From IMG/VR virus record IMGVR_UViG_3300033388_005412, positions 96,001-160,000 of that record: DNA of 64,000 nt, one strand, 5' to 3'. This DNA comes from a virus. Taxonomy: Duplodnaviria > Caudoviricetes. Under the pieces are notes generated by a model that worked only from the letters and a program-made list of their open reading frames with translations, ran no database searches and was not told the origin of the DNA. The translations under genes and the position numbers were made by a program. Shown here piece by piece: positions 1-39,438 of the stretch; the first letter of the stretch is position 1, and each line of letters begins with the position of its first letter.

Positions 1-982
1 CTCCGCCTAATTTATTACGAAACTTTTCAACAACATCCCGGCTTATCTCACCTGTTGCTGGGATATCAGATAACAACTCTTTAATATTGGTTGTTGATGC
101 CAACCTAACAGATTGAACAATATCATTCGGATCATTTACATATTTAGGAAACTCCAGCATTTTATATGATAAATCACTGATTTTCGCAATAGCTGACGGT
201 ATATCACCAATCTGCTTAACACCCCTCATTTCGACACGAAATTTATTATTTCTGGCTTGGGTGTGATAAAGAAACTCCCTTATCGAGTTTTTATATTCCT
301 TTAGAATCGAAGCCGGGAGACTAGTTAAACTATCATTATCAAATGAATTAACCTCAAGACTGGGGTGTTTATTAACCATTCTTCTTTTTATATATTCAAT
401 TGAATTAACATCATCGATATTATCGCTTATATTTTCACCCCATTTTTTAATAACATCGCCACTGGTTGATTTCATAATATTCTGCTGTATCTCTTTATAA
501 CCAGCAAGCGGATCTTGAATTGATGATGCGCCGAATCCTTTAATACCTTCAGTCATATAGTTCATTTCAAATCTTTTATTTATATCAGTAATCTTTCCAA
601 TAGTATTTTTAATATTACCAACATAATCGGTCATAACATTATCAGCATCTCTCGTCAATTTCTTTACCGAATCAATTAACTGTGATTGCCCAGTAGTTAA
701 CTCCGGAACCCATTTATCCAGCTCAAAAGTGGCACCCGATGTCGCCTGTTTTGTTATTTCATTGTCCATCCACGGGAATAAATTCGCAATGGTTTTTTGA
801 AACTGACGAAGCGCTTCCGAAGACGGATAATGCAAATTATAACCAAAAATCTTCTTTGTATTATGATATTTCTTCATCAACGTATTCATAGACACACCAT
901 ATATTCCCGCAAAGGCCGTTATAGAAAATAACCTGGCGCCTAAATTCACATCTTCTCTATCTTTTCTGCTAAAATTTTTCAT
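1..982 (-). CDS. Hypothetical virion-associated protein, partial (runs off window edge, >=327 aa)
   Basis: ATG at 982 overlaps the TAA of the upstream 2851-aa gene (TAATG); frame MKNFSRKDREDVNLGARLF... stays open to position 1; lies downstream of the tape-measure-like gene. Confidence 0.75.
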   Translation of the reverse strand, partial: MKNFSRKDREDVNLGARLFSITAFAGIYGVSMNTLMKKYHNTKKIFGYNLHYPSSEALRQFQKTIANLFPWMDNEITKQATSGATFELDKWVPELTTGQSQLIDSVKKLTRDADNVMTDYVGNIKNTIGKITDINKRFEMNYMTEGIKGFGASSIQDPLAGYKEIQQNIMKSTSGDVIKKWGENISDNIDDVNSIEYIKRRMVNKHPSLEVNSFDNDSLTSLPASILKEYKNSIREFLYHTQARNNKFRVEMRGVKQIGDIPSAIAKISDLSYKMLEFPKYVNDPNDIVQSVRLASTTNIKELLSDIPATGEISRDVVEKFRNKLGG

Positions 983-3900
983 TATGTATTATAAACCATA
1001 ACACGATTGCTGCCGCCTAAACTCGGCGTTAGTGAAATCGAACCGTGAACACCAGCCCTGTCAAGCGCGATTTCAATTGTCCGCTTTATTTCCATATAAT
1101 TTTGAGTTGGTGTGTATGCTATGCCACCCGTCGGGTTTTCCATATTAATTGGCATAATACCCGGACTATTTGCCACTCTCCTGGCCTGGCGGTAATGACC
1201 GAGACCAAAATCATGAGACTGAAGACCTTCATTTTCAACTGTAACAAGTTTAACATCATCAATCGGAACTTCCGGCGCATATACCGCTGAATTAGGATGC
1301 GGCATCGGCGAAACCTGCTGTTTACTTACCACCATATCAATTGCTCTGCCGTCAATCGCGTTCCATTTAGTTTCAAGTAAATGACCCGTTTCGGCCGGAA
1401 CATATTTTAATATATTATCTCTTTCTTCCGGATCAGTTGTTTGTAAAAACGACACAATATGCTGTTTTTCCTGCGGGGGTGTGGCACGATACATATACGT
1501 CCATCCCTTTCCACTTTTATCACTGGGTAATAAACCCATCATCGTACCGCGGGCCTCGTCTAAATATTGCTCATCTCCTGTCATCTGATATAGCATATTA
1601 TTTTTGGTATATGTTAATTGATCAAAATATCTATTAATTTCACGACCCTTTCTAACACTCGCCGGTATGTATGTCGAACCTGTCACATCATTAACCACAC
1701 CATGAACTAATCCATATGCAGCCCCAACTGCCGCACCGGCTGCAGTACCAAGTCCAGGTCCGCCCACGAGTGTCCCAGCCCACGCACCGGGAATCGAACC
1801 TTGAAATGCTGTTGTTTTTGACATAAATCCCCGAGAATACGCATCAATCCAATGGTCATACGGCTCTGACCACATCTTAACACTTCTTCCATATAACATA
1901 TCTCTTTTGTATGCTTCCAATGGTGTTCTATATGGAAAAAACTTCCTGGAAAACGGCAAATCTGCATGCGACACCGTCTCCCAGACGCTTCCCATGAATC
2001 TCTCAGGTAATGAATATTCACTTGCGGCTTTTATATCCTCATTTAATGACATATTATTATATTCCGAATCAGGGGTTAAAACTTTTCCCCTAAAGCGATA
2101 TGGAAAAAGCTCTTCCTTCATCATGATCGCTTTTCTTTTTTTCAAAATTTTATTTAAACGATCTTCATGATCATACCCACCCATCATTTGCGCCTTTACA
2201 ATATCTAACTCCTGTTTGTATTCAGGACTGTATGGGCCCGTGTTCGCAAGAATATTTAGTCTATCGATATGGCTATACCCTTCAGTTCCAAAACCAAGCC
2301 CCCTGGAATACAATTCACCAGCCATGTGTCTAGCTTGACGAACCGCCGCGATGTCTCTGTCATATCGTTTTTCACTATATGTAGCGGGATGCATGGCCAC
2401 AGGTTTTCCACGCCACTGGTATTGAATATTGCCTTCATAAGTTCCGGTTTGCTTCATATAAAAATTAATCTCAGATATATCCTGTTCAGTCGGACCTATA
2501 AAACTATTTAATTCACTATCACTTAAGTTTTTAATTTTTTGAACAGATTTTCCACGAGTTCCTCTTATAATACCGTCATGCGCACCACTGATATTATTAT
2601 ATGCATCATACACATTAGCACCGGCCATTATCTCTCTGTTTTTACGATCTAATTCACTGGTTGCTCTTTCCAATCCTCTCTTGGGATATAGTCCCAAAAA
2701 CATACGGGTCACATCAGGCACACTCATACCCATCATCTCTCCCATCGCTGGCCATGTGAAATTAATATCAAATGCCGTTTCATGCCCCAAACCAGGAAGT
2801 AATAACTCACCCATTGGAATTTTCGAAAAAGGATTACCAGTTTTATACTTTTGAGTCATCCAAGACGGCATACGGTTACAATTATGAAGTAACATAAACG
2901 GCGTTGTGAATGATTCGCCTTTCTCAACTTGAATATCATAAACATTACCATTATAATGTTTAGTTTGAACATCAGTAACCATGGTAAATAAGATATCATC
3001 TTCGAAAAAATGTCTATGCCAACTTGATTTTTTATTATTTCGTAATTTCTTATTTTTTATTTTTATTTTATACCCATAGTTTTCATTTAATAATTTTACT
3101 AATTTTTCCTCATATTCTGATAAAAGAGTTAAATGATATGATCCTGTTGGTTTATATAAATGAACACAAGAAACACATTTAAACTGTAACAACAAATTTC
3201 TTAATGATAAAATTAAGGATAAAGATGGACTACTTGACTTTATAGCACACACATTGGATTTAATTGACCCATCGCCTTCAAAATGACCATGAAATAAACC
3301 CAAAATAAATTCTTTTGGGAAATGATATAATATAAAATCATCAATATATTTATTCTTTGCCCCTGACCCAAATAATTTTGAAAATAATTTATTATAAAAT
3401 GTAGAATAAATATCAATTTCAATACCATTTAAACTTGCTTTATATATATTTCCTTTAATATTTTTATTTTTAAACCATTTTAAAATATCCAATGCAAGAG
3501 TATTTCGTTCATCTTTATGTAAAGCAAATTTAACAACATGACCTTTTGAAGATGAAGATCCCTCACTCAAATATAAACCACAAATAAATCCAAAATTATA
3601 ATCTAATTCTATAAATCTATTATATCTTTTACCACAACCTTGTCCATTATATTTCCAAATTTTATCACCATCATTCCGATTATAATATTCTGACATAAAA
3701 TCATCACAATCTAAAGTTTGATAACACTCATCTGTTTTTAATATAGGATATCCAACAAAATCATATTTACTGATATCTTCAATATTTTTCCACTCTGGTT
3801 TATAATCTCTGTATTGTTGCCTTGTTTTATATCTTTTTTCATTAAAAGTATTATATCCGCATGTTCCACAAGATTTATATAATCGATTTTTAACACACAC

Positions 3901-6900
3901 TATATTTCGCTCTGGATGACTATGACAAAATTTAGTTTTTATAACATATAAGGGATGGTTATGTGTTAACCACACATTTTCAAAATTGTTATATAATCGA
4001 ATTTTATATACTTTCTCATTAACTAGTCTACTACTTTTTTTAATAACTTTTGTATAATCAAATCCAAAAACATTAGCACCTTTTTGTATATCTTGAATTT
4101 CTACAACTTTCATATTTTTAGTTACAATCATACTATCTTCAGTTAAACATATAGGATTAACAGTTTCAATCTCACCACTCATACCCCTTGGCCGCGGCAC
4201 AAGTCGGCGCCAAAGCTCTGTATTATGAACCGCAATACCTTCTGCAACATAATAATTTAAATCTTGTATCTGTAAATCGTACACATCAACATTTTTATCA
4301 TTTAATTGTTCAACTTTTTTAACTTTTATAAATAATTTATTATCATAAATAAAAGAATTTCCATTTTTAAAATCAGAAATATCCATACTTTTATCATATA
4401 ATAAATTATATATGCCAATAGATGACTGCTTATTCCAATGAATATAACTACTAATGCCCGGCTTTCTTATTGTCCCTTGAGGTAACAATCCACCACCTTT
4501 ATCATGATAATTTAAAACTAAATTACCATAAAAACCCAATATAAGTCCAATATCAAAAACATCCTTCACAAAATTAGACGAACACGAATGAAATCCAGCT
4601 TTCTTTATATTAGAATAACCATCTCCAAGTTGAACACCCTTAAAAAATTCCGAAACAATTTTTTTAGAAGATGATTTTATTATGTAATCTATTTTCTTAT
4701 TCTCAGCTCTTTTACCACATAATTGTGTAGCTAATATAGATAACGGTATACATTGTATTCTTAAAATTAATGTATTGTTTTTTACTTTTAATGTACCAAA
4801 ACTACCAAATTTAATTCGAACAATTTCTAATATTTGTTTTGCATATGCTATTTCATTTTTGTTCATCACAAAAGAAACTCGTCCTCCCTTTTCAACATAA
4901 CCCTCAGCCGCATACCATCCCAACAAATATGAAATACTCTCATCAATTTTAACATATCGATTAAACTTATATATTGTTACTCCACGTCTATGTTCCCGTA
5001 TAGCATCTTTAGCAATTTTATCAGAAATTCCATGATCTCGTAATTCTTTACGAGTATAAAAATTACTTGAAAGTAATTTTCGCGCCTTAATATATGATAT
5101 ATACCTCTGTTTATTTTTTATATTATTTGAATACATAAATTCATTATCGTGATACCTATCAGTATACTTTGATAAATCAATCACATATTCTTTCCCTTTC
5201 GGCTTTACAATTGGAACGACACAATAATCGCCCGGTTTGATGTCCTTAATATTTGTATCACACACCTCGATCTTGCTATTTCTTCGGGAACAAAAAAGAC
5301 ACTTCGCTTTATTTCCAGGAATACATGGTCTTGTATTTTTGTGAGAACTATCAATACACCTCGTTCTTTTAAATATCGGAATATGGTGTTTTGATGTTCC
5401 TATTAATTCAGTATTAATAGTGGCCAATTTCATCTTATATAAATCAGATGCTTTTTTATGAATTTTATCAACAACATTATGTAACTCGCCGTCTAACGAT
5501 AAAACTTTATCACCAACATTTACATCAATAATTTTTTTTAATCCATTATCGGTCGAAATATCAGTATCGGATAGAAAACATGCACCAGTTGGGTCGCCCA
5601 TATTCTGATCCCAAAATGCTCTTCTGAATGATGTGATGTCATTTGATGACGCCAATACCGGATTATCCTCAAACGTACGAGCGAAGCCAAGCATTTTTTT
5701 ACTCATTGTCTCGGCTCCGAAACCCCATAATCCCATATATTCAGTTAAATTATATAATTGTTTATCAATTGTTGATTTCACACCTGAAGCACTCATCGGC
5801 GCAACACCTCTCATTTCAGCGGTTCCCGGTATAAGCGGATTATCTCCGCCGCCTATTGTAACAGCACCGCCCTTAAATGCCGAAATATCGCCATGACCTC
5901 TGCCTGCATAACCCATTGACGATAATGCTCTGTCAACCTCTTCTTTATGCATTTCACGCGGCGGTAATATAGTGCGCCCAACCGTTGCGGCCAATGTTGG
6001 ACCAATAATAGGAAATTCTGAAAAAGGTACACCAGTCATTGGAAATGGCTGAGAATAATAATGACGGAACGCGTATCTTCTGCTTCCACCAAGAACATAA
6101 CCTAACGGATTAAAATCCAAAATCGGCAATGGTTTATATAAAAGCTGTTCAAGAGGATTTCCCAATCCTTCCGGAGTTGACTTATATTTTGATTTTGTCC
6201 TGGCAAACCAATTCGGTGTGAACATTTGTGTGCGATTGCCCTTCCATTGTCCACTGCTTAAAAGCCACCAACGACCTTTTCTATACGGAACCTCTTCTCT
6301 ACCGCTATATATTTCTTCTAACTCATCCTGAGATTTAGTTATATCAAATGCACCAAAACCCTGTGTCGCGCCCAGGCCGATGCCCATCAGCATACCATAT
6401 CCTGCTCCAGCCGGACCACCCCAAATTCCACCGATTTTTGCGCCTGCGGCAATTGGAACAACCGCGCCGCGCATTGCCCTCATAAACGGACTATCAATGA
6501 AACCAGGCATTAAACCTTCAGCATATTTGGCCGAATCTGTTATGCCCAAATCATCATTGACACGTGCAAAAAGCATTCGCCCCTTGACACCCTGTTCCGC
6601 AATCGCCGTGTTAAGACCCTCGTCAAATACAGTCCCGTCAAATAATGGATTCTGATCAGTTAACTTGTCGGCTATATCCCAGGCATTTATAGCTCCGGCA
6701 ATTGGTAAAACACGCTTCATCATCACACCTCTTGTGAATAAATCAGCGCCTGTTTTATATGCTTTCGGATCCAGACCAAGACCAAACCACTCGAACAATC
6801 TGGCTGATCTATTAATTGCGGCCTCAGAAAACACATTATTGAATAAAGATGATTTTTCTCCAATACCTGGCCAGAATCCATATAAACTTGTTACATCTGA

Positions 6901-9537
6901 CGGATCTCCTTCCGCAAAAAAATGAACTGGATCAGAATCACCCCTTGGGATTATACTATATCCCCCGGGTTTAAGTTCCGGCCTGAGAATTTCCATACTA
7001 GACTCAACTCTATGAAATGGCTCTGTGAACATTTTCATCCCTTTTGTGTATACAGACTCGACAGCTAATTTCATGTCTTTGTCATAATTTTTTAACATGC
7101 CGCTAACATCCTTCACAAAATCCGGAGTAGCTTTTTGACCAGCAGCATCATAATTAGCCTCAAAAATATGCCTTGTCAGCCAAACCCTCAAAGATGACGC
7201 CTGCTGCTCATTCATTAAACCCTTATTCATCATGGTTTCTGTTAAACTATTTAACGCGACTGATCCCGCGCCAGCTCCATTTTTAAGTAATTTACTTGCA
7301 GCTAAAAATTCCAGCATTTGTTCCCGACCGGACATAACATAACCGTCGGTTGTTTTTTTAGCAACACTTTTTAAAGTCCTATAATGAATATCATCTCGGG
7401 CATTATTCAACAAATGTTTAATATTATAATTTTTTAATAATCTCTCACCCTGAATATTAGCACCTTTTGCTAACTGAATCATACTAGCTTCTTTATCAAC
7501 ATTTTTAATTAATGCTTCCGGCGCCATGTCTATATCAACACCAATATTTCTCAAAATCTCAGGATTTCTAAATAATTTACTGGCTAATGTACTTGATTTT
7601 TTTAATGTTCTACGAATTGTTCTAATAAACGCGTCCCTCATTCCGGGTTTATTCGTTAACGCCGCATCTTCCAATGCCTTCAAACGCAATGGTGATTCTT
7701 GATGAAATACTTTATTCAAAACACCCTTTATATGACCAAAAACACCCGTTGTCGTGAACTTCTTAATATCTAGTGTTTTAGCAAGAAATCCGCGAACACC
7801 ACCAATATCACTTTCTAAACTATATTGCTGCGCTTTCCTACCTTCTGCGCTAAGTCCCATTGCCCTATTTATAGCAACCTCACCAAATGCGTCTGATTCG
7901 CCACTTTGAAACATTTTAAATTTAACACCCTTAGGTGTAACCCGACGCAATAATGATCCGCCTTCCTGTAAAGGATTTTTTTGAACATTATAAAATGAGC
8001 CGTCAACAAATAAACCATAATGATCGGGCTGAACCTGATAAATACCACGGCCCCTTAAAATTTTATCAGATAAATTCTTAAATCCTTTGGTTTCAATCCC
8101 ACGGCCTACCGCAAATGAATCACCTGGTTTCAACAAACGAAATGTCGGAGAATATGCCGCAATTGTATCCATTTTAAATAAACCGGGTATGCTAATATTC
8201 GTTCCTCCAACATGAAGTCTACCAAAATCAACTAAAAAATTTAATGATCTATCTAAAACTCTTTTTGGATTAATATTCCGTAAATCAATAAGTCCGTGGG
8301 CCCCCTTATAAATGCCCTTATCATAAAGAGGAATTCCCCTTTTGCTCATATGTCTCAATTGTTTTTCCCACACAACAGCGTCACGGGATCCCTTTGTTAT
8401 ATTATGTATCGCTTTATCCGATAAAATAGCCGGTCTTAGATTAAGAGCTTTCTCAAGCATATTCATTTTAGGATGCCCTTTATACCCTTTAATTGCTCTG
8501 CTGAATATACCCAGTTTCTTACGACCCGGCATTCCAGCAGCATCAAGTCCTGATATAACAGTACTCGCATATCCGGTCACTGATGGTTTGAACTCAGAAA
8601 CCCGCCTATATGCCCCTTTAAAGGCTTTTTTAGCTATATCCATGGATTTACCAGGCCTGCGCACTAAAGTCCCTAATCCAGCGTATTTGAGAGCACCAAA
8701 GAAGCTTCCAACCCCAGCCGAAATACCATATATACTGGGAATCTTATTTGCTATTTTACCTAAAACTGATGGCGCTAATTTTCCCATACCAGATAGTTCA
8801 GCACCGCCAACTATTGCGGCCCCACCAACCTCTTTGGTAAATCGAAAAGCGCCGCCTAAATTATTCATAGTCAGCAGCACCGGAAGTGTCTGTGCTGTGA
8901 ATTTTACATAATCTTTAACATGTCCAGGAAGATTATACCATGCCGGGGCATCGGCTTTTTCTCGGGCACCCGCAAATCCTAATAACTTATTAGCAAAATA
9001 TAGTGATGTTGTTGACTTCACTAATCTATTTGTATCATTAACAACTTTTCCGGTTAATCTATTACTTAAATTGTCAGGCTTCCAGAAATCTTTAATTCTA
9101 TCTCTTTCATACCGGGACACCCGCTGTGTTATTTTTCTGATATTACCATGATCACCCAATTTAAATTTCTTCTGATTTGCTTTGATCCTTGCCCAATGTT
9201 TTGTCCACTTTTCATACGCCGATGATTTTGCCGCCGTGGCTGATGTTATCTTACTTGTTAACGCTGTGTGTTCTTTTGCTACATCAGATATTAAACTTCC
9301 AATTGTGCCGCCCTTGCTGATCACCTTTTTTATAAGTGATCCACCAATACCGGCCAATGCTTTACCGCCTATTTGAACGGCTCCCATGGCTGCCATAAAA
9401 ACACCCATGTTTTTAGCAAAACCTAAAAGTGTTTTGCCTATTGAATTACCTTGTTTCTGTCGCGGGTCGCCAGAATATTGTGTTGCCGCCTTCCGCTCGT
9501 AGGGATCCTGATAAATTGTTTGTAACCCACCGGCCAT
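982..9537 (-). CDS. Tape-measure-like tail protein carrying two inteins (2851-aa precursor, about 1975 aa after splicing)
   Basis: Very long ORF directly after sheath, tube and chaperone genes; Gly/Ala-rich hydrophobic segments (GAKIGGIWGGPAGAGYG, GAWAGTLVGGPGLGTAAG); two Cys...His-Asn intein blocks. Confidence 0.75.
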   Translation of the reverse strand: MAGGLQTIYQDPYERKAATQYSGDPRQKQGNSIGKTLLGFAKNMGVFMAAMGAVQIGGKALAGIGGSLIKKVISKGGTIGSLISDVAKEHTALTSKITSATAAKSSAYEKWTKHWARIKANQKKFKLGDHGNIRKITQRVSRYERDRIKDFWKPDNLSNRLTGKVVNDTNRLVKSTTSLYFANKLLGFAGAREKADAPAWYNLPGHVKDYVKFTAQTLPVLLTMNNLGGAFRFTKEVGGAAIVGGAELSGMGKLAPSVLGKIANKIPSIYGISAGVGSFFGALKYAGLGTLVRRPGKSMDIAKKAFKGAYRRVSEFKPSVTGYASTVISGLDAAGMPGRKKLGIFSRAIKGYKGHPKMNMLEKALNLRPAILSDKAIHNITKGSRDAVVWEKQLRHMSKRGIPLYDKGIYKGAHGLIDLRNINPKRVLDRSLNFLVDFGRLHVGGTNISIPGLFKMDTIAAYSPTFRLLKPGDSFAVGRGIETKGFKNLSDKILRGRGIYQVQPDHYGLFVDGSFYNVQKNPLQEGGSLLRRVTPKGVKFKMFQSGESDAFGEVAINRAMGLSAEGRKAQQYSLESDIGGVRGFLAKTLDIKKFTTTGVFGHIKGVLNKVFHQESPLRLKALEDAALTNKPGMRDAFIRTIRRTLKKSSTLASKLFRNPEILRNIGVDIDMAPEALIKNVDKEASMIQLAKGANIQGERLLKNYNIKHLLNNARDDIHYRTLKSVAKKTTDGYVMSGREQMLEFLAASKLLKNGAGAGSVALNSLTETMMNKGLMNEQQASSLRVWLTRHIFEANYDAAGQKATPDFVKDVSGMLKNYDKDMKLAVESVYTKGMKMFTEPFHRVESSMEILRPELKPGGYSIIPRGDSDPVHFFAEGDPSDVTSLYGFWPGIGEKSSLFNNVFSEAAINRSARLFEWFGLGLDPKAYKTGADLFTRGVMMKRVLPIAGAINAWDIADKLTDQNPLFDGTVFDEGLNTAIAEQGVKGRMLFARVNDDLGITDSAKYAEGLMPGFIDSPFMRAMRGAVVPIAAGAKIGGIWGGPAGAGYGMLMGIGLGATQGFGAFDITKSQDELEEIYSGREEVPYRKGRWWLLSSGQWKGNRTQMFTPNWFARTKSKYKSTPEGLGNPLEQLLYKPLPILDFNPLGYVLGGSRRYAFRHYYSQPFPMTGVPFSEFPIIGPTLAATVGRTILPPREMHKEEVDRALSSMGYAGRGHGDISAFKGGAVTIGGGDNPLIPGTAEMRGVAPMSASGVKSTIDKQLYNLTEYMGLWGFGAETMSKKMLGFARTFEDNPVLASSNDITSFRRAFWDQNMGDPTGACFLSDTDISTDNGLKKIIDVNVGDKVLSLDGELHNVVDKIHKKASDLYKMKLATINTELIGTSKHHIPIFKRTRCIDSSHKNTRPCIPGNKAKCLFCSRRNSKIEVCDTNIKDIKPGDYCVVPIVKPKGKEYVIDLSKYTDRYHDNEFMYSNNIKNKQRYISYIKARKLLSSNFYTRKELRDHGISDKIAKDAIREHRRGVTIYKFNRYVKIDESISYLLGWYAAEGYVEKGGRVSFVMNKNEIAYAKQILEIVRIKFGSFGTLKVKNNTLILRIQCIPLSILATQLCGKRAENKKIDYIIKSSSKKIVSEFFKGVQLGDGYSNIKKAGFHSCSSNFVKDVFDIGLILGFYGNLVLNYHDKGGGLLPQGTIRKPGISSYIHWNKQSSIGIYNLLYDKSMDISDFKNGNSFIYDNKLFIKVKKVEQLNDKNVDVYDLQIQDLNYYVAEGIAVHNTELWRRLVPRPRGMSGEIETVNPICLTEDSMIVTKNMKVVEIQDIQKGANVFGFDYTKVIKKSSRLVNEKVYKIRLYNNFENVWLTHNHPLYVIKTKFCHSHPERNIVCVKNRLYKSCGTCGYNTFNEKRYKTRQQYRDYKPEWKNIEDISKYDFVGYPILKTDECYQTLDCDDFMSEYYNRNDGDKIWKYNGQGCGKRYNRFIELDYNFGFICGLYLSEGSSSSKGHVVKFALHKDERNTLALDILKWFKNKNIKGNIYKASLNGIEIDIYSTFYNKLFSKLFGSGAKNKYIDDFILYHFPKEFILGLFHGHFEGDGSIKSNVCAIKSSSPSLSLILSLRNLLLQFKCVSCVHLYKPTGSYHLTLLSEYEEKLVKLLNENYGYKIKIKNKKLRNNKKSSWHRHFFEDDILFTMVTDVQTKHYNGNVYDIQVEKGESFTTPFMLLHNCNRMPSWMTQKYKTGNPFSKIPMGELLLPGLGHETAFDINFTWPAMGEMMGMSVPDVTRMFLGLYPKRGLERATSELDRKNREIMAGANVYDAYNNISGAHDGIIRGTRGKSVQKIKNLSDSELNSFIGPTEQDISEINFYMKQTGTYEGNIQYQWRGKPVAMHPATYSEKRYDRDIAAVRQARHMAGELYSRGLGFGTEGYSHIDRLNILANTGPYSPEYKQELDIVKAQMMGGYDHEDRLNKILKKRKAIMMKEELFPYRFRGKVLTPDSEYNNMSLNEDIKAASEYSLPERFMGSVWETVSHADLPFSRKFFPYRTPLEAYKRDMLYGRSVKMWSEPYDHWIDAYSRGFMSKTTAFQGSIPGAWAGTLVGGPGLGTAAGAAVGAAYGLVHGVVNDVTGSTYIPASVRKGREINRYFDQLTYTKNNMLYQMTGDEQYLDEARGTMMGLLPSDKSGKGWTYMYRATPPQEKQHIVSFLQTTDPEERDNILKYVPAETGHLLETKWNAIDGRAIDMVVSKQQVSPMPHPNSAVYAPEVPIDDVKLVTVENEGLQSHDFGLGHYRQARRVANSPGIMPINMENPTGGIAYTPTQNYMEIKRTIEIALDRAGVHGSISLTPSLGGSNRVMVYNT
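2881..4149 (-). mobile_element. Intein 2 of tape-measure-like protein (423 aa, LAGLIDADG endonuclease)
   Basis: Starts CLTEDSMIVTK, block B WLTHNHP, ends VYDIQVEKGESFTTPFMLLHN followed by Cys; FICGLYLSEG and GLFHGHFEGDG motifs. Confidence 0.93.
4222..5580 (-). mobile_element. Intein 1 of tape-measure-like protein (453 aa, LAGLIDADG endonuclease)
   Basis: Starts CFLSDTDISTDNGLKKIIDVNVGD, ends VYDLQIQDLNYYVAEGIAVHN followed by Thr; LAGLIDADG-like YLLGWYAAEG and FFKGVQLGDG. Confidence 0.93.
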
Positions 9538-9542
9538 TTACA

Positions 9543-10205
9543 TCATCCCCTGTTATTTTTTATTTTACGCCATTCATTCTGTAATGCGATAGTTGATTCC
9601 TCAATTGAAATATTACTTAATTCGTCATTTGATAATCTTTTGACTTTTTTATCATGAACATATTTATTCGGTATTGTTTTACTACTTTTTACACTTCCTG
9701 TTTTATTATTTTTAGATGATTTTTTAGGCGTACCAATTAATCTTATACCGGACATTTCTTCGCACAAATAAACTAATTTAAAAAAATCAAAAGGTGATAA
9801 TTTTTTCAAACTTTTAAATGTATATCCCGGGAAATTTTTAATTATATGTGTCGACCAAATAAAAAAATCATCACGCTGTAAATCTTTAACAGCATTTTTA
9901 CTTCTCAATAAAAGTTCCTTAAACCCATCAGGTTCAAAAATTTTTGTTGATTTTAAAACATATTCCGCTAGTGAATTACAGACACCTATTATTTCGTTTT
10001 CGGCGGCAAAATCAACCGGATATAAAATACAGTTATTTAAAACAAAGTTCTCAACCTTAACGGGATCATCATTATATTTTTGAATATCCTGGCTTTCGCC
10101 TATACTTAAAACTCTATATATGTAAATTTTTTTATTAATAACAACTTTATAAATTTCATACATGGTTTTCCATGCATCAATTTGTTTAGAACTAGGGGCA
10201 TTCAC
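9543..10205 (-). CDS. Tail assembly chaperone-like protein (long paralogue)
   Basis: GTG start with AGGAGG; N-terminus IDAWKTMY...IYIYRVLSIGE resembles the 111-aa upstream gene; immediately precedes the tape-measure-like gene. Confidence 0.6.
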   Translation of the reverse strand: MNAPSSKQIDAWKTMYEIYKVVINKKIYIYRVLSIGESQDIQKYNDDPVKVENFVLNNCILYPVDFAAENEIIGVCNSLAEYVLKSTKIFEPDGFKELLLRSKNAVKDLQRDDFFIWSTHIIKNFPGYTFKSLKKLSPFDFFKLVYLCEEMSGIRLIGTPKKSSKNNKTGSVKSSKTIPNKYVHDKKVKRLSNDELSNISIEESTIALQNEWRKIKNNRG

Positions 10206-10247: not shown

Positions 10248-10583
10248 TTATAAGGCGATAGGTTCCTCGTCAACGACAAAACCGGATGCGTTGGAAATGT
10301 ATGTCGCCAATACTGCTGGTGCTCCGGCAGGCATATCCGCAACTTTAGCATTAGACGGATGCACTACACAAAGCTCAACCATACCATCTTCGAGTTTAGA
10401 TGCCGCGTCCGGTGATAAGCCCTGTTGAGGATTAGATACGCCCATTACTTCGTGCTGCAGCGCTTCAAACTCACCTCGTTTCAAAGACCTGTAAACATAC
10501 GTTCCACCCGCGATTTGACATTTGAAAACCTGACCATACTGTTTCTTCCACGCATCAACTGTTTCCTGTTTCAACTCTTCCAT
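10248..10583 (-). CDS. Tail assembly chaperone
   Basis: VDAWKKQYGQVF...YVYRSLKRGEF pattern; position between tube genes and tape measure; AGGAGG RBS. Confidence 0.62.
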   Translation of the reverse strand: MEELKQETVDAWKKQYGQVFKCQIAGGTYVYRSLKRGEFEALQHEVMGVSNPQQGLSPDAASKLEDGMVELCVVHPSNAKVADMPAGAPAVLATYISNASGFVVDEEPIAL

Positions 10584-12521: not shown

Positions 12522-14438
12522 TTATTGATTAACAAGGTACTGATAATTGAACGGAGTATTTCCATTTAATCCAGCAACTGTCTGTTCCCGACGAGAACCT
12601 GTAAAAATAGCGCCGGTCGGAATACCACCCTCTGATCCTTTCCTCTCCATCAAGTCTATATCCATAGCAACATATGACATTGTGTTTTCTGTATAGACAT
12701 CCTCGATAGAATGTGTTTGACCCTCGTCGGCGACTTGTATGCCGTATATGGCCATTGTTGATTCTAAACCGAATTCATTAACATAATTTAATATTATATC
12801 AAATGAAGGTAACTGATGCGCGATGACAACTTTTTTTGTCACATCACTTTTTGATTTTGATATGTCCCATAATGCACGCTGATTAAATACATTAAATATC
12901 ATTGATCCGGCGATTGTAATTGAATTATGAGATAAAAACATACCAAATAAATTATGATTATTATCGATCTCTAAATCATATGTTTTAAAAACTCCTATTT
13001 TTTTAATTTCTTTTATTTTAACCCATTTAAATTTCTCATAACAAGATGGTTTATATTTCCGTAAAAAATCAAAAATATGTTCACCTAATTTTTTCAACAT
13101 TTCATATGTAATTGTTTTTGAATTAAGTGTTGATATCCCAGCCCCAAATTTCTTTCTAATATTCAATTTATTATGTTCAATATAATCTCGCAAATCCTGA
13201 TATTTATATCCTAAATTATTCTTTAAAGATTCTAAAATATTTTCGTATCTTTCTTCTTTGCCAAAAATTCCAATTTCTGTTAAAAATCTATAATGATATT
13301 CCGCAGGTATAATAACATTATATGAATCATGTTTTCTTATAATACCCCATTTATTTTTCCTATTTTGTTCTTCATTTACCGGATTAAACCCTATATATGA
13401 ATATATACCCACTTTAGACAACAACTGCTTAATTTGAATAGCTAATTTATGGGAAGTTGTAGAATACGAAATTCTCACAGAATCATTTATTTTCTTTTTT
13501 CTAACATGTATAGTTCCGTCTGTTCCCCAAATTCTGTTCAAAAATAGTTGGGTTTGCGATATTGACATATTCATTAATAAATCAGGAACAGTTTTTTCAT
13601 ATGATTTTTTGCCATAAATTCCCAACGAACGTGTCCAAATAATGAATGGTTTGTAAATTCTTTGAGCCCAACCAGTTGATTTTTCACAATTATGAATTGT
13701 AATATTATAACAATTTCTATCAAATCTTTTATGATACGACAAATTATTTTTTAAACATTCATCTTCAATGTCCTTAACAATTTTCGCATCATAAACACCG
13801 GGTGTGAAAGAAAACCGCTTTTCTTTACCATTTTTATATAAACCAAATACACCATCACCAATTGAATATGCCATAAATTTTATATAATAATCAGGAATAT
13901 TGATATCATCATTAACTCCATAATCTAATGGGATCATTAATTCATCATTAACAATTAATTCAGAAACCGTTTTCCATCCTTCTTTAGTATAAACTAAATG
14001 TGTTTTAGTTAAATCCATTTTAGAACTATCTTGTAATAAAACAGAATAACATTCCTGTGAACCCTTATAAAATTTATTAGTGCACTTTTGGTATGAAACT
14101 TGATTGTTCTTCTCATCCAAAGATAAAATTTTATCACCAATAAAAATATCTTTTACTTTTTTATATCCTTTATCAGTATAAATAAGTTCATCACTAGCGA
14201 TACATCCTCTTGTAAATCCGCGAACTCTGTTACGCCCAAGTGTTCTGACGGCGCCCTTATCCTGATGTATACTGTAACTTAAAGTTGCTATATCTCCGAT
14301 GACAAAAATTTGATCTTTGCCTTCCCGATCCCGGCCGACACATACCGGGATAATATCGCAACCACTATATGTTGATCTCTCACGCCAGGGGGCTGTATCC
14401 AGACGAAAAAATGGTGTGTCGGCACCCCTGTTTTCCAT
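12522..14438 (-). CDS. Tail-tube paralogue interrupted by an intein (638-aa precursor, 211 aa spliced)
   Basis: Exteins TYSGCDI...LSYSIHQDKGAVRTLG...RG|SITIAGSMIF match tube motifs ISYSITRQKAPIYTMG...RGIAGSMI. Confidence 0.8.
   Translation of the reverse strand: MENRGADTPFFRLDTAPWRERSTYSGCDIIPVCVGRDREGKDQIFVIGDIATLSYSIHQDKGAVRTLGRNRVRGFTRGCIASDELIYTDKGYKKVKDIFIGDKILSLDEKNNQVSYQKCTNKFYKGSQECYSVLLQDSSKMDLTKTHLVYTKEGWKTVSELIVNDELMIPLDYGVNDDINIPDYYIKFMAYSIGDGVFGLYKNGKEKRFSFTPGVYDAKIVKDIEDECLKNNLSYHKRFDRNCYNITIHNCEKSTGWAQRIYKPFIIWTRSLGIYGKKSYEKTVPDLLMNMSISQTQLFLNRIWGTDGTIHVRKKKINDSVRISYSTTSHKLAIQIKQLLSKVGIYSYIGFNPVNEEQNRKNKWGIIRKHDSYNVIIPAEYHYRFLTEIGIFGKEERYENILESLKNNLGYKYQDLRDYIEHNKLNIRKKFGAGISTLNSKTITYEMLKKLGEHIFDFLRKYKPSCYEKFKWVKIKEIKKIGVFKTYDLEIDNNHNLFGMFLSHNSITIAGSMIFNVFNQRALWDISKSKSDVTKKVVIAHQLPSFDIILNYVNEFGLESTMAIYGIQVADEGQTHSIEDVYTENTMSYVAMDIDLMERKGSEGGIPTGAIFTGSRREQTVAGLNGNTPFNYQYLVNQ
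12924..14204 (-). mobile_element. Intein in tube paralogue (427 aa, LAGLIDADG endonuclease)
   Basis: Starts CIASDELIYTDKG, block B LTKTHLV, ends TYDLEIDNNHNLFGMFLSHN followed by Ser; FMAYSIGDG and FLNRIWGTDG motifs. Confidence 0.93.
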
Positions 14439-33394: not shown

Positions 33395-33625
33395 TTAATA
33401 ATTCTCCTGATCCTGATTTATGTGCCGTTTACCGCCAAAATTATTAAGAAAAAAACCCAAACCCGCGGCAGATCCAAGAACAATACCGGTTTTGGCACCC
33501 CTTCTCTTTAAAAACTGACTCAATTTTATATTCTTTTCGCTCATTGTCTGCAGCATTCTGATAACACCCTTTGCGCCATTTATAGGATTATTCATTATCT
33601 TCTCCTTCATCGGTTTTATCGACAT
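33395..33625 (-). CDS. Small hypothetical membrane-associated protein
   Basis: GIVLGSAAGLGFFL segment; GAAGGAGA RBS. Confidence 0.5.
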   Translation of the reverse strand: MSIKPMKEKIMNNPINGAKGVIRMLQTMSEKNIKLSQFLKRRGAKTGIVLGSAAGLGFFLNNFGGKRHINQDQENY

Positions 33626-35282
33626 CTTTTATTTCGCCGTCCATAACAACATTAACATCATGCTGCTCCTTCAATTGTCTAGCGTGTTCTCTTAATTTTG
33701 CCGAATAAGTTGAAGCATCATCCTTCATAGACGTAAATAATTTGGTTTTAGATTCCCTGGTTGCGACCATGCTTTTTAATATTTTATCCCGGCGGGCCTG
33801 AACCTTTGTTTTAACACTTAATGCAATATGTTCTTCTTTCCTTATCAACGCCTCGCCGGTTTGCTCATTGATGCCAACAACATTTTCCATGATAAATCCT
33901 TCAGTTGCCAAATAGGCATTCGCCCGGGCATTCAATATATCAATCTCAACAAGCTCCATAACTAAAGCCCTTTCAATTTTATCATCCCAATCTGCTTTCA
34001 ACGATACGATATACTCATCCCGCCATTTTTCCATATAAAGCTGCTCAAACGGACAATTATGAGTTGCAATTCCACCAGCAACATAAGTTTTATGTTTATC
34101 AACATCCAGTGAATAAACTAAACCCTTATAGTTTTCCTTTTTTACTGAAACCTCGACCCATTTTGTTTTTTCATACGTACTCCCATAGCCATATTCGAAT
34201 TTACTTTTTTTATCCTCAAACGTCGGAACATCCATAACACCCGAAATAATATTACAAGCCCTTATAAACATAGGCCATTTAACATATGGGCCCATTTCAG
34301 GATCATTTGAAAATCTACCCTTTTTCCACATGGGATATTCAATTGAAAGACCCAAAGAATTTAGAAATAAATCATACACACCATCATCCTGCAATAAACT
34401 TTCATGATGTTTTCGCATTTGTTCTGGTGTTGCCCATTTATACACACCATCCCATTTAGAATCAACTTTTCGCAAAGAATCAATAAAAGAAAGCCTACTT
34501 GTTTGCGTCTTTAATGAATAATATTCCTCTGCTAAATATGCCTCAGTATTTGTATTATAAACACCCAAAATCCACAATTTATCAGCATCTTCAGAAACAG
34601 CCCGTGAAGCAAAATTCATGTGCAATTTATGCCCATGTGTGCTATTTTTTATTCTATGAATTAATTTAGTTTTTCCTATCCTCCAAAAACGACCTCTTTT
34701 CATTAAATAAACACAAAATTTGCCTATCGCGTTTTCATTAAATTTTGCTGCTGATATATGATCATAAGTTACTTTATGTGAATGATTATTTTTTGTTAAT
34801 AATGTAACAACACATCCATTAAATCCATGTGACGACATTGAAAAAGAATAACCCTTTTTTGCTCCTTGCCTACCTTGCACAAATACACCATGTTTTCTAT
34901 CCCACCCTATTAATCCGTGTTTAGACGGATTTAATTTTTCCACAGGAACATATCCATCCTGAATTGTGTATATTAATTCACCAGGGGGATGACAAAGATT
35001 TCCAAGGGGTGCTTTTTTCGCCGCTTGAAGAGGACATTGTGCCGCAATTGAACATGCGTCGCCCAAACACACCATGGGAACAGATTTAAAATCACCACTC
35101 CCATGGAACCCCAAATATCTACCAATGTTTTTAATATCATCAGGTGTTAATTTTAAAGCTTTAACATAGTCCTCATCGCAAAATTTAATTAAATTACTAA
35201 CATTCATATTTTTAATTTCACTAACCTGTATAACACCCGACGGACTAATCGTTTGCAATTCTTTTGATTTCTTGTCTGACAT
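33588..35282 (-). CDS. Putative terminase small subunit-like protein carrying an intein
   Basis: Start moved to ATG 35282 for RBS spacing; helical C-extein (EHIALSVKTKVQARRDKILKSMVATRE) and position upstream of terL; spliced product has C-x4-C-x5-C-x13-C. Confidence 0.55.
   Translation of the reverse strand: MSDKKSKELQTISPSGVIQVSEIKNMNVSNLIKFCDEDYVKALKLTPDDIKNIGRYLGFHGSGDFKSVPMVCLGDACSIAAQCPLQAAKKAPLGNLCHPPGELIYTIQDGYVPVEKLNPSKHGLIGWDRKHGVFVQGRQGAKKGYSFSMSSHGFNGCVVTLLTKNNHSHKVTYDHISAAKFNENAIGKFCVYLMKRGRFWRIGKTKLIHRIKNSTHGHKLHMNFASRAVSEDADKLWILGVYNTNTEAYLAEEYYSLKTQTSRLSFIDSLRKVDSKWDGVYKWATPEQMRKHHESLLQDDGVYDLFLNSLGLSIEYPMWKKGRFSNDPEMGPYVKWPMFIRACNIISGVMDVPTFEDKKSKFEYGYGSTYEKTKWVEVSVKKENYKGLVYSLDVDKHKTYVAGGIATHNCPFEQLYMEKWRDEYIVSLKADWDDKIERALVMELVEIDILNARANAYLATEGFIMENVVGINEQTGEALIRKEEHIALSVKTKVQARRDKILKSMVATRESKTKLFTSMKDDASTYSAKLREHARQLKEQHDVNVVMDGEIKDVDKTDEGEDNE
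34056..34994 (-). mobile_element. Intein (313 aa) with non-LAGLIDADG, GIY-YIG-like core
   Basis: Starts CHPPGELIYTIQDG, block B VTYDH, ends VYSLDVDKHKTYVAGGIATHN followed by Cys; core CVYLMKRGRFWRIG...EAYLAEE. Confidence 0.9.
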
Positions 35283-35730
35283 AATTATCATCCTCCAACT
35301 GTTTATAATTAAATCTCACAACACGCCATCCGTTTTCTTTTGCTATTGCTTCTTTTATTCTATCATTTCTTTTATATTCCTCAAATTTTTGCTTAGTTTT
35401 GTGCATCATTTTATTAAACTGAAAATGCTGCCTGCCATCATATTCAATAATCAATTTTTTTCCAGGTACAGCTATATCAAATCGTCTATATAACAAAAAA
35501 GGAAAAACTATTTCTTGAAAAACAGGCTCTTTAAAAACACACCCATTAACAACATCTCTAACTGTTCTAAACACCATTGTCTGACCTTCGGATACTTTTT
35601 TTCTAGGCTTCAACACAACCATATTATATTTTTTATAATAAATATATTTCTTCCTGTGCCTCTCACATAAAAACCCGGATTTTATTCCATCGGCGCAGAC
35701 CCAACACGTTCTGCATTCCTTTTGTTCCAT
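35245..35730 (-). CDS. DUF559/Vsr-like PD-(D/E)xK endonuclease
   Basis: RFDIAVPGKKLIIEYDGRQHF...D.IK...GWRVVRF signature; Cys-rich N-terminus. Confidence 0.78.
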   Translation of the reverse strand: MEQKECRTCWVCADGIKSGFLCERHRKKYIYYKKYNMVVLKPRKKVSEGQTMVFRTVRDVVNGCVFKEPVFQEIVFPFLLYRRFDIAVPGKKLIIEYDGRQHFQFNKMMHKTKQKFEEYKRNDRIKEAIAKENGWRVVRFNYKQLEDDNYVRQEIKRIAND

Positions 35731-38746: not shown

Positions 38747-38832
38747 TGGAGCCGGCGAGAGGATTCGAACCCCCGAGGACTTACGTCACCGGTTTACAAA
38801 ACCGGTCCTATCAACCACTAAGGGACACCGGC
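38747..38832 (-). tRNA. tRNA-Thr(UGU), 86 nt, long variable arm, CCA encoded
   Basis: Acceptor GCCGGTG/CGCCGGC, anticodon stem CCGGT/ACCGG with loop TTTGTAA, TTCGAAT T-loop, U73-CCA. Confidence 0.82.
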
Positions 38833-39218
38833 AATTTCTTTGCACGACCTCTTCCAAAATGAGCTGCCATGCATTTTCGATTACAATAAAAATCTTTTTG
38901 CCCAGCTTTTATTTTATTCTTAATTCTATTTGCTCTTTTATTCTTTAATTTTCCGCAAAATGTACACCGAATTGTTATCATAGCTGGCTTGGATGCATGC
39001 CCGCTCGCATGTCTTTTTCTATCAGTTAATTCTAAATTTTCTATACGATTATCATGTATATCTCCATTAATATGGTGAACAATTTCACTGCTTTTTAATA
39101 TTCTTCCTATCTTTTGAGACATAACCCATCGATGCTTTAAAATCGCACCATTTCTATTTGCCATAGGATTCCCAATCTTACCACAAACATAATCATAAAA
39201 TTTTTTTTTATTTTCCAT
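38811..39218 (-). CDS. HNH homing endonuclease
   Basis: HRWVM...[16 protein letters not shown]...H; C-terminal CTFC...YCNRKC; its 3' end overlaps the 5' end of tRNA-Thr. Confidence 0.88.
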
Positions 39219-39243
39219 TTTATTCAAATATTCCTAAACATCT

Positions 39244-39270
39244 TTACTCTACCAACTGAGCCACACCCTG
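39244..39270 (-). pseudogene. Isolated 5' half of a tRNA
   Basis: CAGGGTG TG GCTC AGTTGGTA GAGT (acceptor 5' strand plus perfect D-arm); no matching T-arm follows, the HNH gene does. Confidence 0.6.
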
Positions 39271-39279
39271 TTTTTTTTT

Positions 39280-39353
39280 TCGAGCGGGCAGGATTTGAAC
39301 CTGCGACCTTCGGGTTATGGGCCCGCGAAGCTACCAAACTGCTCTACCGCTCT
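39280..39353 (-). tRNA. Initiator-type tRNA-Met(CAU), no encoded CCA, C33
   Basis: 1:72 mismatch, A11-U24, three G-C pairs closing loop CCCATAA, TTCAAAT T-loop. Confidence 0.82.
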
Positions 39354-39360
39354 TCATATA

Positions 39361-39438
39361 TGGTACCGATGGTGGGATTCGAACACACACCTGTCAGCAT
39401 TTTAAGTGCTGTGACTCTACCAATTGGTCTACACCGGC
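39361..39438 (-). tRNA. tRNA-Leu(UAA) with short (6-nt) variable region, CCA encoded
   Basis: Leu-type D-loop AATTGGTAGA, stem CAGCA/TGCTG, loop CTTAAAA, A73-CCA. Confidence 0.78.

Follow-up and report, generated by a model that had tools for sequence, protein, structure and literature searches.

Two closely spaced class-1 inteins in the conserved core of a putative giant virion protein from an uncultured tailed phage

The locus and its two inteins

The stretch of DNA analysed here (the window) comprises 64,000 nucleotides (nt), bases 96001-160000 of the 203,294-bp virus record IMGVR_UViG_3300033388_005412, which represents an uncultured, 203-kb, contractile-tailed phage, carries direct terminal repeats and is rated 100% complete. 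Close to one end of the window, a giant open reading frame (ORF) encodes a precursor protein, P0001, that is interrupted by two LAGLIDADG inteins with only a short extein island between them (72 nt, TELWRRLVPRPRGMSGEIETVNPI); upon removal of both, a mature protein of 1,975 amino acids (aa) is predicted. The coordinates of the precursor, its exteins and inteins, and further features of the locus are collected in Table 1.

Both elements carry the hallmarks of inteins at their ends as well as in their interior. Specifically, the cysteine nucleophiles C1320 (intein 1) and C1797 (intein 2) are in place, the downstream junctions read AVHN/T and LLHN/C, and each of the four LAGLIDADG motifs has its acidic residue (AAEG and LGDG in the first element, LSEG and EGDG in the second). 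Profile hidden Markov models (HMMs), run in Pfam and whole-genome scans, place Intein_splicing matches at window positions 4222-4566 (E 4.4e-8) and 2881-3108 (E 7.4e-8) and LAGLIDADG_3 matches at 3115-3312 (E 5.9e-6) and 4780-4935 (E 3.2e-4). Guanine plus cytosine (G+C) makes up 0.283 of intein 1 and 0.247 of intein 2, against 0.51 of the 72-nt island and some 0.41 of the exteins, and these sharp boundaries further support the presence of two inserted inteins. An earlier reading of the same DNA, made from its letters and translations (hereafter the sequence-only reading), had described inteins of 453 aa (+1 Thr) and 423 aa (+1 Cys) that keep their LAGLIDADG motifs, lie 24 residues apart and splice to a product of 1975 aa; the ORF, the intein coordinates, the lengths and the spacing were matched exactly on re-examination, motifs and HMMs agree with the assignment, and the combined evidence lies well outside what chance could produce.

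Separately, a four-cysteine cluster (C-x10/11-C-x7/9-C-x2-C) follows directly after block B in both inteins (window 5290-5358 and 3859-3927, minus strand), and similar clusters occur in both inteins of the relative P0062. At this cluster, intein 1 is about 70 residues longer than its orthologue in P0006. A zinc-ribbon inserted into the Hint domain, at the position of a DNA-recognition region, is a possible explanation of the cluster.

Table 1. Features of the intein-bearing gene, its protein family and the adjacent chaperonin genes; nucleotide positions refer to the window, aa positions to the precursor unless P0003 is named
Feature	Window position (nt)	Strand	Detail
Precursor ORF (P0001)	982..9537	(-)	open over 2,851 codons; 2,851 aa
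N-extein, aa 1-1319	5581..9537	(-)	N-terminal ~900 aa weakly conserved
Gly-rich hydrophobic segment of N-extein		(-)	aa 37-69
Conserved core of N-extein			begins ~aa 1030; GRWW motif aa 1088-1094
Hydrophobic glycine-zipper segment, aa 1026-1064	6346-6462	(-)	similar to aa 2580-2614
Intein 1, 453 aa, aa 1320-1772	4222..5580	(-)	CFLSDT...AVHN, +1 Thr; class-1 termini C1...HN
Intein 1, position in family			site A, after P0003 residue 1320
Intein 1, block B TxxH	5374-5400	(-)	TSKH
Intein 1, LAGLIDADG motifs	4894-4926; 4612-4647	(-)	LLGWYAAEG; GVQLGDG
Extein island, 24 aa, aa 1773-1796	4150..4221	(-)	invariant E..RR and NP residues
Intein 2, 423 aa, aa 1797-2219	2881..4149	(-)	CLTEDS...LLHN, +1 Cys; C1...HN
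Intein 2, position in family			site B, after P0003 residue 1341
Intein 2, block B TxxH	3943-3969	(-)	THNH
Intein 2, LAGLIDADG motifs	3553-3588; 3262-3303	(-)	ICGLYLSEG; GHFEGDG
C-extein, aa 2220-2851	982..2880	(-)	first residue (aa 2220) is the sole Cys of the mature protein
Cas4/lambda-exonuclease-like PD-(D/E)xK fold, aa ~2225-2437	2227..2865	(-)	predicted; degenerate
Nuclease motif II	2563-2595	(-)	Asp kept
Nuclease motif III, ExK	2527-2544	(-)	K-I-K
Nuclease QxxxY	2458-2475	(-)	E-I-N-F-Y
Hydrophobic C-terminal glycine-zipper segment, aa 2580-2614	1696..1800	(-)	
Family intein sites, first half (P0003 -1 residue)			1100, 1107, 1163, 1173, 1274, 1320, 1341, 1343, 1346, 1352
Family intein sites, second half (P0003 -1 residue)			1359, 1364, 1371, 1388, 1478, 1557, 1637, 1646, 1654, 1676
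gp143/gp144 chaperonin homologues	10248-10583 (E 9e-10); 9543-10205 (E 7e-8)	(-)	directly upstream of the giant ORF

Colinear relatives and separate intein lineages

A search with the C-extein returned 46 homologues, which are mostly 1,940-2,100 aa long and lack any Pfam domain. The nearest intein-free homologue, P0003 (1,975 aa), is 54% identical over the C-extein and reads ...GDPIGA-TELWRRFLPRPR...NPL-V-NTMPSW... across the junctions, which align without gaps. This alignment indicates that the +1 Thr of intein 1 is a native residue, and that the +1 Cys of intein 2 substitutes for a variable residue flanked by two invariant asparagines. The sequence-only reading had proposed comparing the exteins with intein-free homologues, and this comparison turns out in its favour, as the exteins are colinear with P0003 and the junction segment is conserved.

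Among phage records searched by tblastn, homologues were found in the Bacillus thuringiensis phage 0305phi8-36 (ORF145), in WH1 (gp096), Edson, KLEB27-3, Acinetobacter phage ME3 (gp035) and a Moorella phage (CDS0026), and sequence homology places the host protein in the family of 0305phi8-36 gp145, whose record describes a virion structural protein identified by mass spectrometry. An exhaustive profile search extended this family to 2,527 cluster representatives at E<=0.001 (1,181 at E<=1e-30).

The two inteins are unrelated lineages and therefore go back to separate invasions. Intein 1 belongs to a lineage that another 11 members of the sample carry at this position; the identity of intein 1 is 54% to the P0006 element over the C-terminal 244 residues and 28-31% over the full length to those of P0020, P0032, P0047 and P0060, and it also resembles the P0159 intein at site 1352 (32%, E 7e-75). 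The closest relative of intein 2 is the P0107 intein (aa 2028-2466; 37% over the full length, E 4e-88), which sits after N1343, two residues downstream of the intein 2 site, and has a +1 Ser instead of Cys; within this lineage, the insertion point has apparently shifted slightly. Intein 1 and intein 2 themselves share 29% identity, and only across 120 aa of the endonuclease domain. A recent duplication is ruled out by this narrow similarity and by the closer relatives that each intein has elsewhere. Likewise discarded was the possibility that intein 1 is a false call, which its subthreshold Pfam score in the Hint region might suggest, since the protein aligns colinearly with homologues that lack inteins, and other members have orthologous inteins at this very position.

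A dense landscape of insertion sites

Inteins were mapped, with boundaries refined by hand, in a sample of 178 proteins composed of the 150 best profile matches and the first 46 homologues; a 349-aa insertion in P0141 was judged not to be an intein and left out. The sample holds 70 inteins at 20 sites, carried by 49 of its members, and eight of these sites fall within the 52 residues 1320-1371 of P0003. Site 1320 is occupied in 12 members and site 1359 in 14; site 1341 is occupied only in this phage. Conservation amounts to 0.575 at the intein sites versus 0.456 +/- 0.029 at random positions, and the observed value was reached in 0 of 20,000 permutations. Such a number of distinct sites recalls the multi-site intein hosts among ribonucleotide reductases, replicative helicases and polymerases.

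The +1 residues of the 70 inteins are 41 Ser, 23 Thr and 6 Cys, and this bias towards Ser/Thr (64/70) is in keeping with a host protein that avoids cysteine. Specifically, 112 of 130 intein-free family members are cysteine-free, and the exteins of P0001 contain no cysteine apart from aa 2220, the +1 Cys of intein 2.

Close spacing of inteins also recurs in the family. P0062 carries two inteins (aa 1183-1982) with a 10-aa spacer, SHYFDRPYPK, which means that 24 residues is not the family minimum; P0085 carries three (aa 1926-3013) with spacers of 36 and 17 aa, one of them a 200-aa mini-intein; and P0135 (4,392 aa) carries five, the most in any relative. The tandem insertion into a structural protein that the sequence-only reading had singled out is therefore real but not unique, given relatives with inteins 10, 17 and 36 residues apart.

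The conserved core and a nuclease-like fold

Conservation along the protein is low in the first ~900 residues and high thereafter, with peaks at 1050-1200, 1300-1400 and 1600-1650. The 56-residue segment that starts at the intein 1 site ranks 6th among 1,020 such segments and contains most of the invariant residues of the C-terminal half (E1322, R1325, R1326, N1339, N1343, W1348, G1356, P1370 and G1371 of P0003). The consensus of the 52-residue intein-rich stretch is [ST]E..RRF.P...NP..N.MP.W.P..F..GDPY.K...GE.RLPG..YE. This rank and the cluster of invariant residues lend weight to the earlier suggestion that the short segment between the inteins is a conserved functional motif. Hydrophobic glycine-zipper segments lie on both sides of the conserved core.

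Outside the family, neither sequence nor structure searches detected a relative of this segment. Modelled alone, P0003 1080-1392 has few regular elements (pLDDT, the predicted local distance difference test, 76; pTM, the predicted template-modelling score, 0.72). No chain reached Z>=2 when this model was run through a wide VIA-align search, and the top PDB match from Foldseek had an E of only 5.8; in the ESM Atlas, the shape search gave TM (template-modelling) scores <=0.28 and the feature search values <=0.77. BFVD returned family members only, one of them named 'Large polyvalent protein associated domain-containing protein'. These failed searches with a predicted structure do not establish a new fold.

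Downstream of this segment, the family carries a predicted enzyme fold. For P0003 900-1975, the C-terminal 1,076 aa, AlphaFold used with 35 intein-free sequences predicts a compact multidomain body (pLDDT 75.6, pTM 0.74), in which model residues 480-640 match the nuclease domains of Cas4, lambda exonuclease, LHK-Exo, MGME1, Exo5 and AdnA. The matches to Cas4, lambda exonuclease, LHK-Exo and MGME1 score Z 8-11.3. VIA-align scores reach Z 11.3 (7mi5_A; 147 aligned residues, root-mean-square deviation 3.9), Z 10.8 (3k93) and Z 9.3 (4ic1_A), and the best Foldseek match of the model is 4ic1 (E 4e-4). At the sequence level, the family profile aligns with Cas4 SSO0001 with the motif II Asp, the motif III ExK and QxxxY in register, P0025 matches Cas4-type PHROGs (E 8e-15) and P0039 matches TIGR00372 weakly. 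Pfam searches over 35 family members gave one weak PDDEXK_1 match and Tim17/Gly-zipper matches, and nothing else. The four-cysteine iron-sulphur (Fe-S) cluster of Cas4 proper has no counterpart: no column of the family alignment holds an invariant Cys, and apart from the +1 residue of intein 2, cysteine is absent from the exteins.

The six catalytic columns read E-D-(E/D)-K-Q-Y in 119 of 178 relatives, and about ten members are without the nuclease core. In P0001 they read G-D-K-K-E-Y, and in its clade x-D-K-K-E-Y; judged from this alignment, the clade of this phage has lost both catalytic glutamates, of motif I and motif III, and its nuclease is degenerate. The sequence-only reading had named an enzymatic host protein as an outcome that would count against it, and the answer is divided: the family is in part an enzyme family by its nuclease fold, but the catalytic glutamates are lost here. 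The intein-rich motif is retained in members whose nuclease core is deleted, which indicates that its role is independent of nuclease catalysis.

Gene order and neighbouring genes

The common gene order is sheath, tube, tube paralogue, a gp142-like gene, two tail chaperonins, the host protein, a second giant protein and the hub, and it holds in 0305phi8-36, WH1, ME3, the Moorella phage and three metagenomic contigs. The next gene (genome 90671-96982, minus strand; window 1-982 and upstream) encodes 2,103 aa with one Cys and the sequence GGDSDGDEA, an RNA-polymerase-like DxDGD motif, at aa 1673. Three of seven counterparts (L007, L008 and WH1 gp095) have a D.DGD motif at the corresponding position; the strict pattern was not found in the counterparts from 0305phi8-36 (gp146), ME3 (gp036), the Moorella phage and L006. 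The third giant protein (genome 83581-90447, minus strand; 2,288 aa) corresponds to gp147, the hub of 0305phi8-36 (phrog_20474, E 8e-55), and begins with a staphylococcal-nuclease domain (PF00565, E 1.4e-6, aa 60-153). The neighbouring giant proteins are nearly cysteine-free too.

The genome is rich in intein and homing-endonuclease elements beyond the two described above. A third full intein (427 aa, CIASDE...LSHN, +1 Ser; window 12924-14204, minus strand) lies in ORF 12522-14438, has a LAGLIDADG_3 match (E 4e-13) and a G+C of 0.257 versus 0.409 in its flanks, and interrupts the tail-tube paralogue. Without it, the paralogue, plainly a structural protein, is 211 aa long and colinear with WH1 gp100 (E 1e-37). 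Further Intein_splicing matches occur in a 1,686-aa ORF (E 1.6e-16; genome 38899-39450, minus strand) and, weakly, in the ORF at window 33588-35291 (E 7.6e-5; match at window 34056-34217, minus strand), and LAGLIDADG matches in two ORFs of 275 and 363 aa (genome 11310-11816 and 19429-19587, plus strand). Three tRNA genes (Thr-TGT, Met-CAT and Leu-TAA) are found at window 38747-39438 on the minus strand.

Interpretation and alternatives

Two full-length class-1 inteins with LAGLIDADG endonucleases lie in a member of the gp145 family of giant virion proteins; the available data make it likely that they splice and home, and that the host protein travels in the phage particle and acts as a pilot or channel. 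The 2,851-aa precursor would be translated as a single chain, as suggested by the intact motifs, and each intein would then excise itself by the established chemistry of inteins (acyl shift at Cys1, attack by the +1 residue, here Thr or Cys, Asn cyclisation at the C-terminus of the intein and acyl rearrangement), presumably leaving the 1,975-aa protein. During co-infection, the LAGLIDADG endonucleases would carry each intein into intein-free alleles. The choice of site is explained by conservation: the stretch is among the most conserved of the protein, so that the target DNA is common to many phages and imprecise loss would be lethal. The host protein, in turn, would be packed in the particle and enter the host cell together with the DNA; the near absence of cysteine may reflect travel along the tail and across the oxidising envelope.

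Several points weigh against this reading. The N-terminal Hint part of intein 1 scores under the Pfam gathering thresholds, and the splicing of both inteins is deduced from their motifs. The virion location is carried over from the annotation of the 0305phi8-36 record and would apply here by analogy, and ejection into the host is suggested by cysteine avoidance, hydrophobic segments and gene context. Finally, the gene occupies the canonical tape-measure slot, and a ruler role for the variable N-terminal ~900 aa is possible.

This last point leads to the alternative that survives best, namely that the host protein is the real tail tape measure, with a variable N-terminus that sets tail length and a conserved C-terminal body as an appended domain. 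The label 'tape-measure-like' had already been given by the sequence-only reading. It is in agreement with this label that the gene directly follows the chaperone pair, in an order common to 0305phi8-36, WH1, ME3, the Moorella phage and three metagenomic contigs, and that the protein is giant, with hydrophobic glycine-rich segments and an N-terminal region of variable length. Enzyme-fused tape measures are moreover documented, for instance gp96 of Thermus phage P23-45 (PMC10770324), and the adjacent gene, regarded as the 'tape-measure slot', has an RNA-polymerase motif and hence need not be the ruler. However, no tape-measure family matched P0001, P0003 or P0025 in Pfam (E<=0.1), PHROGs (E<=0.01) or NCBIfam, and the C-terminal 1,076 aa are predicted to be compact (pTM 0.74), whereas a tape measure would be expected to be extended and mostly helical, with no large globular body. 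In 0305phi8-36, the authors gave the tape-measure role to gp146 on the basis of tail length and described the chaperonins as 'one gene removed' from that gene (PMC2147016); by homology, the protein studied here corresponds to gp145, not to gp146, and that paper (Hardies 2007) contains no discussion of gp145. Tape measures also diverge fast (PMC2147016), but the host protein is conserved far more strongly than its giant neighbour, a gene that BLAST does not detect between these phages, and the lengths of intein-free family members are tightly grouped (quartiles 1,919-2,092 aa). The ME3 genome paper does not state a tail length. The label is thus not borne out: a true tape measure is unlikely, if still worth considering, and a pilot or channel protein is more likely than a pure length ruler.

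A second alternative holds that the inteins are conditional switches, whose delayed or condition-dependent splicing would set when the virion protein matures. Elsewhere, inteins that respond to redox state are known, intein 2 brings cysteines into an otherwise cysteine-free protein, and since the inteins break a highly conserved motif, the precursor is probably inactive before splicing. Yet most family members, the closest homologues included, are intein-free at these sites, site B is occupied in this phage only among the 178 sampled members, and intact homing-endonuclease motifs in foreign DNA of low G+C are the signature of mobile parasites, which makes a regulatory role very improbable. Least credible of all is that one or both inteins are splicing-dead and the unspliced 2,851-aa product is incorporated or discarded: the subthreshold Hint region of intein 1 and the departure of block F in both inteins from the common H-N-F pattern would fit, but all nucleophiles and terminal His-Asn pairs are intact, the frame is open across 2,628 nt of AT-rich intein DNA in a phage record that is complete with terminal repeats, and a broken invariant motif in a conserved virion gene would face strong counter-selection.

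Inteins are found almost exclusively at residues whose change the protein would not tolerate. Their positions can as such be read as a free functional annotation that marks the core of a giant virion protein family, and the many insertion sites speak for an essential centre of activity or binding rather than for a ruler with a passive role. A more specific proposal is that the segment is a catalytic or a partner- or DNA-binding centre of an undescribed activity in a pilot protein delivered to the host alongside a virion RNA-polymerase-like protein; this is put forward tentatively, as somewhat more doubtful than probable. If true, the inteins would naturally chart where the active centre lies in a pilot protein of a new kind, across more than 2,500 phage lineages.

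Comparison with known systems

The closest described relative of the host protein is 0305phi8-36 gp145, which is homologous across the conserved core (29% identity, E 2e-16), lies in an identical gene order and has a Cas4-like domain too. It is without inteins and has the canonical triad D...DIK...QQLNFY, whereas the protein of this phage combines two inteins with a degenerate triad. No assigned function for the gp145 family was found in the literature searched.

With regard to the nuclease-like domain, the fold predicted for P0003 residues ~1380-1540 matches Cas4, RecB and lambda exonuclease structures (4ic1, 7mi5, 3syy and 1avq; Z 8.9-11.3 over 140-150 residues), with most of the intein hot spot immediately upstream of it. 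Unlike Cas4, the domain is part of a virion protein of ~2,000 aa and has no conserved Cys, hence no Fe-S cluster. In its overall build, the host protein resembles P23-45 gp96 (PMC10770324) and the polyvalent proteins (PMC5512222), which are likewise giant multidomain proteins, encoded among late virion genes, whose enzymatic modules are presumed to pass into the host with the DNA. No domain shared with either was found by sequence, and the polyvalent-protein paper (PMC5512222) makes no mention of the gp145 family, of inteins or of Cas4.

The elements themselves are ordinary class-1 LAGLIDADG inteins, as both share the Cys1...His-Asn/+1 architecture, two LAGLIDADG motifs and a highly conserved insertion sequence with the known members of this class. 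Their setting differs, since a giant uncharacterised virion protein takes the place of an enzyme of replication or packaging. Actinobacteriophages have been reported to carry inteins in structural proteins, tape measures among them (bioRxiv 10.1101/2025.01.02.630785), and close spacing of inteins is likewise on record (PMC10643990); this host family and its density of intein sites were not found in the literature searched. The present analysis adds the site map, the degenerate nuclease of the clade, the relations between the intein lineages, the closer tandems in relatives and the lone +1 cysteine.

The family occurs in thousands of uncultured large phages as well as in the cultured 0305phi8-36, ME3 and WH1, and the mapped sites offer direct targets for mutagenesis in cultured relatives. 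The locus is also a natural system for studying the coexistence of closely spaced homing inteins, for which the neighbouring inteins of haloarchaeal MCM, with several close insertion sites in one gene, provide the nearest parallel (PMC10643990). There, two active neighbouring inteins home poorly into the doubly empty allele and mostly invade alleles that are singly occupied (PMC10643990), a behaviour that fits the finding that site 1320 is common and site 1341 rare, their targets lying 72 bp apart in the empty allele. Compared with haloarchaeal MCM, the gp145 family carries this arrangement further, with 20 sites, eight of them within 52 residues, and spacers as short as 10 aa in relatives.

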